Made by a program: the position numbers. Shown piece by piece: positions 12,001-15,000 of a stretch of 61,958 nucleotides of DNA. How positions within the stretch are numbered: the stretch's first letter is position 1; each line of letters begins with the position of its first letter. Location of the stretch: IMG/VR virus record IMGVR_UViG_2939521961_000017; one strand, written 5' to 3'. This stretch comes from a virus (Duplodnaviria > Heunggongvirae > Uroviricota > Caudoviricetes).

Positions 12001-15000
12001 GCTGAATAATGCGCAGAACCAGTACAGGACGATCGCCAGTGATAATGCTGAGGCGTAATTTAAACGGACGTTCTTTCAGGCCTTCAAACGGAACGCATTT
12101 AAATTCAAATGCCACTGGCATAATGTCTTTGGTCTTCGCTTCGACAGACTCCATCAGGGAGCGTTTGCCGCTGAAGTCATTGTCTTCAAAATCAGCGGTC
12201 TGGTTTGCTTCAATTGTGATTTTACGGACTGCCGCAGCCGCTTTGGTTGCCTGAATGGTGTCACCATTAGCATCAAAGCCCACAAGGTAGTCGGCCCAGT
12301 CTTCAATCCATTCTGCCAGTGACTTCTGGGAGTTACGCTCGCCATTAACAGACAACAGAGCAGAAAACGGTGCTGTCTTTTTCAGTTTGAGGGTGGCGGT
12401 GTTATCTGCGTGACCTGGTTCATCAATAGTACCCAGGTTAAGCACACTGACGGCTCGCATATTATCGGCATCGATAAAGCAGCGGGTGCCTTCATCTGCA
12501 AGATCTTTAGAATAACGGGTAAAGTCATCGATGCTGGCAGTGGAAAGCGCACCACGGAAACGGAAGCGATTTAAATTAAATTTTTCCAGATCATGAATGC
12601 GGAAATTCTCAGGCAATGCCACAGCATCGGCACCAATATTACTGATAATTTCATTAACACCCTGAGCAGAAATAAGGGCATGGATTTGATTAATTGCGGT
12701 TGCGTCTAAGTTCTGAGACATAATAAGTCCTCACTATATAAAGATATTCAGTGATGAGATAAATAATCAGTTAATTAAGAACGATATTAATGACCTGCTG
12801 CGCGGAGTTTTCCGTCAGGTTCACCGGCAAGAGTCAGTAATTGTCCCTGGTCTTCCTGCAGAATAGTCAGTCGACCACCGCGATTGACATACATCGGCGT
12901 TTCGGTGGTGTCTTCTTCGGAAATTTTCCCGCGGTTAGTCGGGCGAACATATGAGAGTTTGTGTTTGATTTTCACACGGTTCTCATCAAACGGTTCGATT
13001 TCCAGGTTGAGCGAGACCTTACCTTTGGTTTTCGTGTTCATCACACCGGAAGCGACTTCACTGAGAACTGCGCCGATTTTGGTTTCAAATACGCCGCCGT
13101 CCAGCTCCCCGATAAATGCCTGCACATCAGTACTGCGTTCGCTAGCCATTTTGCTGCTCCTCATCATATCGACCCTGCAAGGTCGGTTGGTTTCTCCACA
13201 AAACAGAGAAGAACACCTGCGGTGGCAGCCGCCCGGCTGGATTGGGTTATGAGCCCGTCGTCCGGTGATGCTCTTCTCTGTTTTGTAAAAAGAGCGGTAC
13301 CAGCCGGAAGCAAGTGTACAAACTGGTACCGCCAAAGCAGTGGCTGTTGTGGTGGGGTTGTCACTCAGGCGTATGGTCAACCTGACAATCCGGTGTCCTC
13401 AACGGGGAAAGAGTAACCCCGCCATACTTACCGCCGCGCCATTTCGCGGATTACCACAACGCTGAGAGCACTTAGCAAGTTACGGCACCACACTTTGTCG
13501 CGGTTCCATAAATGCCCTCATCGTTGCACCCTGGTCTCTTCCCAGGCGTCAAACCGGATCGCCGCGCTGGTTAGGCGTCTTATCAGCATCATCATTGACT
13601 TGCACATTCCGGCTACCTGGTTTTTTTGCCCGAGCAAGGAGTGGATTGTCCCCTTTAACGTCCCCAGACCGCTAACGACGCATGTGCCATACGCCGTGTT
13701 ACAACCAAATTTTGTTTAATCTTGCCTGCGGCATGTTTCTTTTAGATACATTATGTATCTCAAGGGTACATTGTCAAGTATAAAAAAACCTGCCGAAGCA
13801 GGTTATAAATATTGATTAGGCCTTTATTTTGTATCTTCTTGGTTTTCCTGAGAAAATTACTGTACCAATTATAGAGCAATTACCGTTAATCTTAATGTAA
13901 GGCTCAGGCCAGTTTGGGTTTAATGCTTTGAGATAACGCTGTGTTCCATCTTCTATCAATCGCTTGAAGGTGGTTTCGCCTGTATCGTGCATCAATGCAA
14001 TAACGTCGTCACCGTGGCAGGCAGGGACTTCGGGATCAACAAAAATCATGTCTCCCGGGCGGTACTCATCAATCATTGAATCACCAATCACCCGCAAGAT
14101 ATAAGTCATTTCGCCACAGGGTACAGGGCAGGGATAAGTTTCTGCTGTGCTCAAATCAACCTCAGAATAGCCAACTTCTTTCCATGCTCCGGCCTGTACC
14201 CATGATATGACAGGGACTAACGTTATTTGTTTGTTAGTGATTGAAACATCAGGTTTTTTTGTGATGTTCGTGGTCTGGTGTTCTTGATCAAGCCATCCGA
14301 CAGGCAGGTCGAAACATTTTTCGATGTGCCGTGCCATGCTGTCACCGATATTTTTAGTAGCACCATCTCCCATAAACCTGCTGGTCTGGGTTGGCTCGCG
14401 ATCAATCATGGTGGCAAAGGAAGAATTCCCGCCAACACCATCTCTCAGTTTTCTGGCGTTAGACCGCCGGATGTCATGGACTGTTTTCATAAAGAAATTA
14501 AAACCTTTGTACCGATAAGGTACAAGTATCTTGAAGGTTCATATTAATCATGTAATATGTATATTGGAGGTACATATTGTATGAAAGCGTATTGGGACTC
14601 TTTAACCAAAGAACAGCAGGGCGAGTTGGCCGGAAAAGTTGGCTCAACACCAGGCTACTTACGGCTGGTTTTCAATGGTTATAAAAAAGCCAGTTTTGTG
14701 CTGGCTAAAAAACTTGAGCAATGCACGTCAGGTGCAATTACGAAATCTGACTTAAGACCGGATATCTATCCGAAAGATTAACAGAACACCTTCAATTTTT
14801 AACCACAGAACGATGAGGCTAACCGTGGGTAAGTATCACTGGAAAGTAGAAAAACAGCCTGAGTGGTACGTGAAAGCTGTCAGAAAAACTATCGCAGCGT
14901 TGCCGGGTGGTTACGCTGAAGCAGCTGACTGGCTGGATGTAACAGAGAACGCATTATTTAACCGCCTTCGTGCCGATGGCGATCAGATTTTCCCGCTGGG

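Follow-up and report, generated by a model that had tools for sequence, protein, structure and literature searches.

On how RNA polymerase passes the early terminators of lambdoid phages that lack an N gene (SfV, Shiga toxin 2c (Stx2c) and some Stx2a phages, cdtI, LLS and others), the literature offers only the passing mention that they "may have a put-like mechanism". We analyzed this question in IMG/VR virus record IMGVR_UViG_2939521961_000017, a stretch of 61,958 nucleotides (nt) hereafter called the window, which is a lambdoid prophage of the SfV/cdtI/Ayreon/2H10/Stx2c-phage type. The interval between its cI-like repressor gene and the first gene of its leftward early operon is transcribed into an untranslated leader, whose promoter-proximal part folds into a conserved RNA of about 180 nt that we term module A. 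This RNA is widespread, and we tentatively propose that it helps early-left transcription to resist termination.

Module A is a conserved structured RNA

13524-13702, minus strand: module A, a structured RNA of about 180 nt (covariance model R1, 140 bits, E = 7e-43).
13599-13617, minus strand: the near-invariant 19-mer of module A, GGUAGCCGGAAUGUGCAAG.

An earlier reading of this DNA from its sequence alone (the sequence-only reading) had proposed a structure and covariance analysis of the minus-strand leader, and in this analysis module A proved to be strongly covarying. Alignment of 30-47 diverged copies reveals invariant strands separated by helices that vary in both length and sequence (P2 and P3). 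Specifically, module A is comprised of a P1 hairpin with the loop GGCAC, the variable P2, an invariant joining strand, the variable P3, then P4 and P5 (loop GAAGAGA), while the P4 loop (C/A)ACC pairs with a downstream GGU(G/U) to form a pseudoknot. In the proposed structure 96.8% of the alignment cells are paired and 12 of 33 pairs are compensatory, against 24-44% pairing in controls with slid partners. For the nested part the values are 95.6% and 11 of 25 pairs (47 distinct sequences from about 12 genera), in an alignment that was fitted to the model and so leans towards the structure. The model leaves out P3 and the inner part of P2, which are too variable to align. Module A is a real structured RNA. 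Additionally, the AUGUGC of the 19-mer may pair with GCACAU of the P1 loop, a pairing that covariation cannot test because both sides are invariant.

Two loops were observed to be constant among the copies. The apical loop of P2 (13640-13660 in the window, and its homologues) always reads (C)UCCUU(G) and resembles the 3' end of 16S rRNA with its anti-Shine-Dalgarno sequence CACCUCCUUA, and the P5 loop is always purine-rich, GAAGAGA. Scans with Rfam 15, run at the gathering threshold on the whole window and at E <=10 on 12700-14700, gave no family at 13150-13745 except noise at the cI terminator.

The leader starts at a repressor-controlled promoter

13816-14490, minus strand: cI-like repressor gene (Pfam Peptidase_S24).
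13779-13804, minus strand: intrinsic terminator of the cI-like gene, AACCTGC-TTCG-GCAGGTT, a 7-bp stem with four GC pairs and the tail TTTTTATA.
13750-13777, minus strand: PL, the early-left promoter, TTGACA, 16-nt spacer, CATAAT (11 of 12 matches).
13745-13759: operator palindrome GATACATTATGTATC (OL), overlapping the -10 hexamer of PL.
14571-14581: matching operator core TACATATTGTA (OR copy) at PR and the cro start.
13150-13743, minus strand: untranslated early-left leader of about 590 nt, with no conserved or coding-like open reading frame (ORF).
12787-13149, minus strand: first early-left gene, YfdP-like, 120 amino acids (aa), with its ATG at 13149 and a GAGGAG Shine-Dalgarno sequence (phrog_204).

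The gap between the repressor gene and the first credible leftward gene, estimated at about 650 bp in the sequence-only reading, measures 666 bp, and the two elements described there are both present: a perfect 7-1-7 palindrome and, at 13787-13804, the repressor terminator with its T run behind AACCTGC-TTCG-GCAGGTT. The gap also holds a near-consensus promoter that had gone unnamed. The Ayreon record carries an annotated terminator at the position matching the cI terminator, and an annotated promoter at the place equivalent to PL. The exact core of the palindrome, TACATAWTGTA, occurs twice in the 62 kb, once at the PL -10 and once at PR and the cro start; with up to one mismatch there are 8 matches against 1.8 expected, and none of 100 shuffles reaches 8. 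The palindrome is beyond chance, and the confinement of its core to the gap and the cro start identifies it as an operator and the promoter as PL. We infer that transcription from PL starts near 13743. The minus strand downstream of PL has few promoter-like sites, and sigma-70 promoter-like sites are depleted over 3000-13400 of the window (6 against 17.7 +/- 4.5 expected from shuffles), consistent with one long operon read from PL.

No protein antiterminator is encoded in the interval

13164-13364, minus strand: 66-aa GTG-started ORF, a mechanical call that overlaps a conserved RNA hairpin.
Up to 13380, minus strand: TTG-started extension of the first gene's frame, also mechanical and overlapping a conserved RNA hairpin.
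13518-13637, minus strand: 39-aa TTG-started ORF, annotated in Ayreon.

The absence of N has been noted before for SfV, SfII and SfIV (PMC3851460) and for LLS (PMC12315714). For the window the sequence-only reading had reached the same conclusion, which is borne out: the first gene after PL is YfdP-like and not a lambda-type N gene, the early genes tested have no N-like domain in Pfam or PHROGs, and the interval has no conserved ORF. A conserved small Arg-rich ORF, set beforehand as the finding that would speak against that conclusion, was sought and not found. The accompanying statement that the minus strand holds no ORF of 60 aa or more has to be corrected, as the 66-aa ORF and the TTG-started extension both exist.

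These frames are the material for one alternative, namely that a small N-like protein is encoded in the interval by the 39-aa ORF, the 66-aa ORF, or the upstream extension of the first gene. Such candidates do exist mechanically, and depositors annotated ORFs of this kind in Ayreon and mEp460; the 66-aa frame is open in Salmonella phage ST64B too, contains KQRRA, and matches the family phrog_33599. However, the candidates start with non-ATG codons that lack a Shine-Dalgarno sequence, and the 39-aa ORF is kept in 2 of 44 diverged representatives and not conserved in the other 42, surviving only in near-identical relatives; across module A there is no conserved ORF. Between the window and ST64B there are 16 substitutions, which spread 4/7/5 over the codon positions without favoring the third in any frame, and which compensate within the RNA hairpin overlapping the 66-aa ORF, whose arms would need to encode KQRRA and VLLCFV while compensating. 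Pfam gives no match for the 39-aa or the 66-aa ORF, and the only PHROGs match is that of the 66-aa ORF to phrog_33599 (E = 3.7e-17), a family of unknown function. Since an ORF that looks non-coding matches it, phrog_33599 probably collects the same spurious call, i.e. repeated mis-annotation of the RNA hairpin region. A hidden N-like peptide is accordingly most improbable, and essentially excluded. Together, these data show that neither the interval nor any other early gene tested encodes a protein antiterminator.

Module A takes the place of putL in an HK022-type phage but is unrelated to put

The slot directly behind PL is occupied by N/nutL in lambda and HK97, and by putL in HK022. RNAs of the HK022 put type suppress terminators in cis and without other factors, an effect that mutations in the zinc-binding domain of the RNA polymerase beta-prime subunit block. 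In the HK022-type phage L048 the slot is occupied by module A. The cI protein of L048 is 56% identical to that of HK022 and the PL/operator regions are near-identical, but the two phages diverge right after the -10, where L048 has module A and HK022 has putL; an intrinsic terminator follows module A in L048 before the first gene. Functional analogues share a slot in mosaic lambdoid genomes, and with L048, which carries module A where HK022 carries putL, as the strongest case, we favor, at somewhat less than even confidence, the reading of module A as a new cis-acting leader RNA that makes early-left transcription resistant to termination. The narrower version, in which it represents a new class of protein-independent, cis-acting processive antiterminator, or another RNA directed at RNA polymerase, structurally unrelated to put, is more doubtful than otherwise.

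The put RNAs of HK022 and HK639 are cis-acting, protein-independent processive antiterminators (PMC9378689). Module A resembles them in lying immediately 3' of PL in a lambdoid phage devoid of N, with terminators downstream, in replacing putL behind a homologous promoter and operator, and, as in HK639, in having a left-operon copy only. It differs from them in sequence and structure, showing homology in neither; in size and architecture, with about 180 nt, five helices and pseudoknots against about 70 nt and two stems; and in occurring also outside lambdoid PL leaders, beside tRNAs in P1 and epsilon15-like phages.

A diverged member of the HK022 put family in the leader would fit the RNA-based, put-like antitermination that the sequence-only reading had suggested. 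By eye, P1 of module A (CGGCG-UAUGGCACAUG-CGUCG) recalls stem I of put (CGGCG...CCAUG-CGUCG), and CCGGAAUGUGC recalls CGGCAAUGCUGC. The comparison with HK022-type put sites gave no match in either direction. Model R1 did not match putL or putR of HK022 or putL of HK639, and still gave no match on HK022 with the filters off; model R2, built from these three put sequences, peaked at 7.4 bits (E about 0.9) over 9000-24000 of the window and found nothing at module A. Because both covariance models are negative, the resemblance by eye is not evidence of homology. With these two models without a cross-match, and with module A 2.5 times longer and of different architecture, homology to put was rejected; the chance that the leader holds a diverged put is vanishingly small, and this reading is essentially excluded. 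What stands of the earlier suggestion is a large conserved structured RNA 3' of PL, located at the putL slot in an HK022-type phage; membership of the put family does not.

Lambda N/nutL and the rrn-type boxA offer a second comparison, with the same slot (first element after PL) and the same task of passing early terminators, but the window has neither an N gene nor boxB; inspection by eye revealed no boxB-like hairpin in it. A boxA within two mismatches occurs downstream of module A in only 2 of 138 contexts, the window not being one of them. A small subgroup alone (L090 and L047) has the motif (GCUCUUUAACAA) behind module A; in the window, CGCUCUUUUUACAA is a terminator tail. In L090 (about 3360) and L047 (about 2245), some 125-130 nt beyond the 19-mer, a short hairpin and a perfect rrn-type boxA (GCTCTTTAACAA in L090, GCTCTTTAAAAA in L047) were observed within about 25 nt after module A, arranged boxB-boxA as in rRNA leaders. 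The EAR RNA of Bacillus eps operons is a structured, pseudoknotted RNA of processive antitermination. Module A is likewise a mid-sized pseudoknotted RNA of a leader or operon interior, proposed to act in cis on elongation; it belongs to another phylum and, as judged by the Rfam scan only, has no similarity to any Rfam family including EAR.

The rest of the leader is a chain of RNA modules

13457-13526, minus strand: A2 hairpin, CAACGAUGAGGGCAUU...AGUGCUCUCAGCGUUG, a stem of about 16 bp around a small inner hairpin (fold).
13338-13460, minus strand: module B; in Qin-type prophages such as phage Tritos its homologue (about 89% identity) directly precedes dicF.
13287-13461, minus strand: sRNA-17-type small-RNA unit, with the 5' end CGUUGUGG and the 3' terminator as in sRNA-17.
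13286-13333, minus strand: leader intrinsic terminator, GGCGGUACCAG...CUGGUACCGC then UCUUUUUA (-21 kcal/mol).
13191-13291, minus strand: module C, a stem of about 25 bp with a branched top, just upstream of the first gene.
13157-13187, minus strand: small hairpin CGACCUUGCAGGGUCG and the GAGGAG Shine-Dalgarno sequence of the first gene.

Read from PL, the leader runs through about 45 nt, module A, A2, the small-RNA unit with its terminator, the 25-bp hairpin, and the Shine-Dalgarno sequence of the YfdP-like gene. In distant blastn comparisons it is a mosaic, with segments that match different, otherwise unrelated phages, always in unannotated DNA. The leader terminator ends in the U-run UCUUUUU. 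ST64B has a terminator hairpin at the same place with a stem of unrelated sequence, which indicates that the structure is what is conserved; it also has a different hairpin at the place of the CGACCUUGCAGGGUCG hairpin. Module C is common to SfV and SfII (about 95% identity) and to ST64B (about 85%), with compensatory changes relative to ST64B, and the fold of 13140-13345 has z = -6.3. It is possibly an RNase III site. Together, these comparisons show that the leader is a chain of conserved RNA modules.

A2 follows module A in 108 of 161 occurrences, and its arms exist in 33 variants with compensatory changes. In the epsilon15-like phages a tRNA-Arg starts directly after the GUUGUG of A2, and in the sRNA-17 unit the RNA 5' end falls in the 3' arm of A2. 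A2 is probably a processing site. ARAGORN predicts no tRNA or tRNA-like gene in 12500-16500, though module B ends in ...CCCCACCA.

The sequence-only reading had allowed that the region may encode a small RNA, and here it anticipated well, since the stretch from 13461 to 13287 shares both ends with a mapped RNA. sRNA-17 was identified in Escherichia coli K1 strain RS218, in an mEp460-like prophage, as a 193-nt RNA by 5'/3' rapid amplification of cDNA ends (RACE) and Northern blot, and was treated as an independent ArcA-regulated gene (PMC7719688). We placed it on mEp460 and on the window through the published primers (PMC7719688, Table S2). The mapped ends span 194 nt on mEp460, with 13461 and 13288 as their equivalents in the window: CGTTGTGG, the motif of the 5' end, begins at 13461 within the 3' arm of A2, and the 3' end lies at the U-run of the terminator. 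In the window, 13288-13319 is an exact match to the full-length forward primer and 13335-13353 a match to the 5'-RACE primer; neither the Northern probe nor the full-length reverse primer matches there. The two units thus have the same 5' and 3' ends at the same place in the same leader and differ in an interior of about 100 nt, which in the window is another variant, replaced by the Qin-type module B.

The published ArcA-bound "promoter of sRNA-17" fragment corresponds to module A plus A2 (3382-3631 of mEp460, L003), and the sRNA-17 quantitative reverse-transcription PCR amplicon starts inside module A. Since the fragment is module A plus A2 and the amplicon begins within module A, the expression data published for sRNA-17 reflect the whole PL leader rather than an independent gene. 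This suggests that sRNA-17 is a processed and terminated piece of the PL leader, and its mapped 5' end would be a processing site therein.

The terminator of this unit derives, by its sequence, from DicF (RF00039), which belongs to the ydfC-dicF segment of the dicB operon in Qin-type prophages. Both lie in a repressor-controlled early-left operon and end at a Rho-independent terminator, and the loci are homologous; the segment upstream of dicF in Tritos is the counterpart of module B, and the leader terminator keeps UUUGGCGGUAyCAGUUU, with 83% column identity in the alignment. It differs in lacking the first 19 or so nt and the 5' seed, and in carrying another loop and another 3' arm. The Rfam DicF model, which scores 72.5 bits on Tritos, has no match at E <=10 in 12700-14700. 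The unit should not be called DicF, because the part that pairs with ftsZ is absent.

Module A is common and occurs in diverse contexts

We detected module A by blastn in 1832 of 5426 complete E. coli genomes (about 34%), on chromosomes and P1-like plasmids, and the module A/A2 segment (13450-13745) has a 100% identical counterpart in E. coli E2865. None of the 40 E. coli records listed has any annotation over module A itself. Its invariant 19-mer GGTAGCCGGAATGTGCAAG occurs in at least 120 IMG/VR contigs. Among contigs sampled at one genome per species it marks 24 loci, of which 22 belong to Enterobacteriaceae (Escherichia, Klebsiella, Citrobacter, Enterobacter, Kosakonia, Kluyvera, Buttiauxella, Phytobacter and others) or Erwinia; the other two are contigs of metagenome-assembled genomes or bins labelled Bacillota / Oscillospiraceae, which we take for mis-binning.

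In 56 of 113 distinct contexts, module A comes right after a same-strand S24 repressor gene; in lambdoid mEp390, too, it lies directly behind the repressor gene. It is promoter-proximal in the window and in L048; near the copies of SPN1S and of L017/L136, promoter hexamers were identified by eye only. In phages P1, P7 and D6 it is located between tRNA-Ile/tciABC and ban, and in P1 a dicF-like region and three tRNAs precede it. In the epsilon15-like phages (phiV10, TL-2011b, SPN1S) and a Klebsiella phage it stands just upstream of tRNA-Arg. The IMG/VR phage L028 carries two tandem copies, at 3994-4158 and 4801-4963 (minus strand, 121 and 169 bits), about 640 nt apart; all other loci have one copy.

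SfV (L002) shares the cI, PL/operator, terminator hairpin, module C and left operon of the window and has no module A. At 3050-4110 (minus strand) of SfV we observed, in the place of module A, the moron orf33 (98 aa, not Arg-rich) and another variant of B, and the hairpin CCACCGAGCCUGAAGUGG-UGAAAAGACAGGCA, found ahead of module A in phages such as L016 and L090, is retained in SfV. The arrangement looks as if module A had been deleted.

No description of module A emerged from literature searches on put-like elements, RNA of the P1 ban operon or the invariant 19-mer, with King et al. 2011 on antiterminator RNAs not covered; the annotation of the HK639 record, which derives from that paper, marks the put-like element and not module A. 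DicF, sRNA-17 and the absence of N in this phage group were already known. Module A, with A2, appears undescribed in Rfam, in the phage and genome annotations examined, and in the searchable literature.

What module A may do in the leader

For the left operon to be expressed, RNA polymerase starting at PL has to pass both the leader terminator and 590 nt of RNA that is not translated. In the reading we favor, module A would fold on the nascent transcript just 3' of the promoter and act without a phage protein, doing the job of HK022 putL through an unrelated and larger RNA. Transcripts that are terminated, or cut in A2, would yield a small RNA like sRNA-17 as a by-product or second product, while late antitermination would stay protein-based, through Q. 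The need for read-through is indicated by the -21 kcal/mol terminator between PL and the first gene, which is structurally kept in ST64B and coincides in a relative with a mapped RNA 3' end (PMC7719688 primers). About half of 44 representative contexts have a strong same-strand terminator within about 700 nt downstream of module A, in a strict count that missed CC-prefixed tails.

Several findings weigh against this reading. A looser terminator count downstream of module A gives 86 against 85 of 100 by strand, i.e. no difference. SfV, which shares the cI, PL, terminator hairpin and left operon of the window, does without module A, so module A is not indispensable for expression of the left operon; SfV is a viable phage. 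In the epsilon15-like phages module A sits in a short unit with tRNA-Arg and one ORF, and in P1 and D6 it is 2.4 kb from the promoter, between tRNA-Ile/tciABC and ban; at these sites long-range antitermination is not obviously needed. Module A has no detectable similarity to put in sequence or structure, and boxA accompanies it only in the small subgroup. A second copy, the analogue of putR, is present in neither the window nor L048, and the covariance model found none in the rightward operon.

Part of this evidence fits a different role, which we consider nearly as likely and likewise short of even: module A would be a stable, processed RNA carried as cargo that works in trans or as a ribonucleoprotein and takes no part in antitermination, with the left operon expressed through a leaky leader terminator. 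Such a cargo, carried beside tRNAs and DicF-like RNAs, might for example bind a conserved host machine or counter host defence. The recurrence of module A beside tRNAs and DicF-like sequences in unrelated phages (P1, epsilon15-like, the window), its modular and mobile character with two tandem copies in L028, and its dispensability in SfV all agree with this. Moreover, A2 at its 3' side holds a mapped RNA 5' end and abuts a tRNA 5' end, like a processing site, and the invariant, single-stranded 19-mer suggests a conserved partner. On the other hand, half of the contexts place module A as the first element of a repressor-controlled left operon, in an HK022-type phage it precisely replaces putL, no partner, target or stable RNA species is known for it, and the available expression data concern the downstream sRNA-17 unit only.

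A riboswitch-like sensor of a metabolite, ion or alarmone, setting how much PL transcription passes the leader, would also be placed in a promoter-proximal 5' leader and would also combine an invariant pseudoknotted core with variable peripheral helices. We consider it improbable: no expression platform, be it a terminator or a Shine-Dalgarno-sequestering element, overlaps the 3' end of module A, where A2 or variable sequence follows, the leader terminator is about 190 nt away, and the downstream genes (YfdP, tRNA-Arg, ban, ParB-like) are mutually unrelated. Cis-acting resistance to termination remains our tentative preference for the role of module A.

Prophage setting of the leader

60899-61261, minus strand: complete transfer-messenger RNA (tmRNA) gene at the end of the window (Rfam scan, 295.8 bits).
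14581-14781: Cro-like gene (Pfam).
14813-15376: CII (CP76) gene (Pfam).
21241-21993: Q-type late antiterminator (PF03589).

Over 13100-13900 of the window, identity is 98-99% with cdtI and Ayreon and 97.8% with a series of Stx2c-converting phages. The complete tmRNA at the window end indicates that the prophage occupies the ssrA attachment site, which has been reported for phage LLS and its relatives (PMC12315714). Behind the YfdP-like gene, the early-left operon continues with YfdQ (DUF2303), a YfdR-like HD protein, and a PAPS-reductase-like protein (Pfam, PHROGs).

The Rfam scan also detected other RNAs in the window. In the rightward operon, isrK (15733-15809, 67 bits) and C4 antisense RNA (15834-15921, 83.6 bits), both on the plus strand, fall inside a mechanical 383-aa ORF (15373-16524), 5' of its Ash/Rha-domain part. 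The region 15733-15921 is an antirepressor module like P1 immI (c4-icd-ant), and the N-terminal 180 or so codons of the ORF are probably RNA genes rather than protein. Within 22496-23125, 3' of Q, three tRNAs are followed by STnc100 (22857-23065, 171 bits) and AgvB, an anti-GcvB sponge (23066-23125, minus strand) whose 56.2 bits only just reach the threshold; this arrangement is the layout of Stx-phage late regions.

Implications

The question of early-terminator passage in these phages is now narrowed to one concrete and very common RNA element. The published sRNA-17 is to be reread as a probable processed piece of a repressor-controlled phage leader, whose reported "promoter" looks like structured RNA. 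Module A is unannotated in P1, in phages that convert their hosts to production of Shiga toxin or cytolethal distending toxin, and in about a third of complete E. coli genomes as counted above, so whatever it does, the best-studied bacterium has a considerable gap in its annotated RNAs. If module A does antiterminate, control of elongation by RNA alone would be common, and not a curiosity of HK022.

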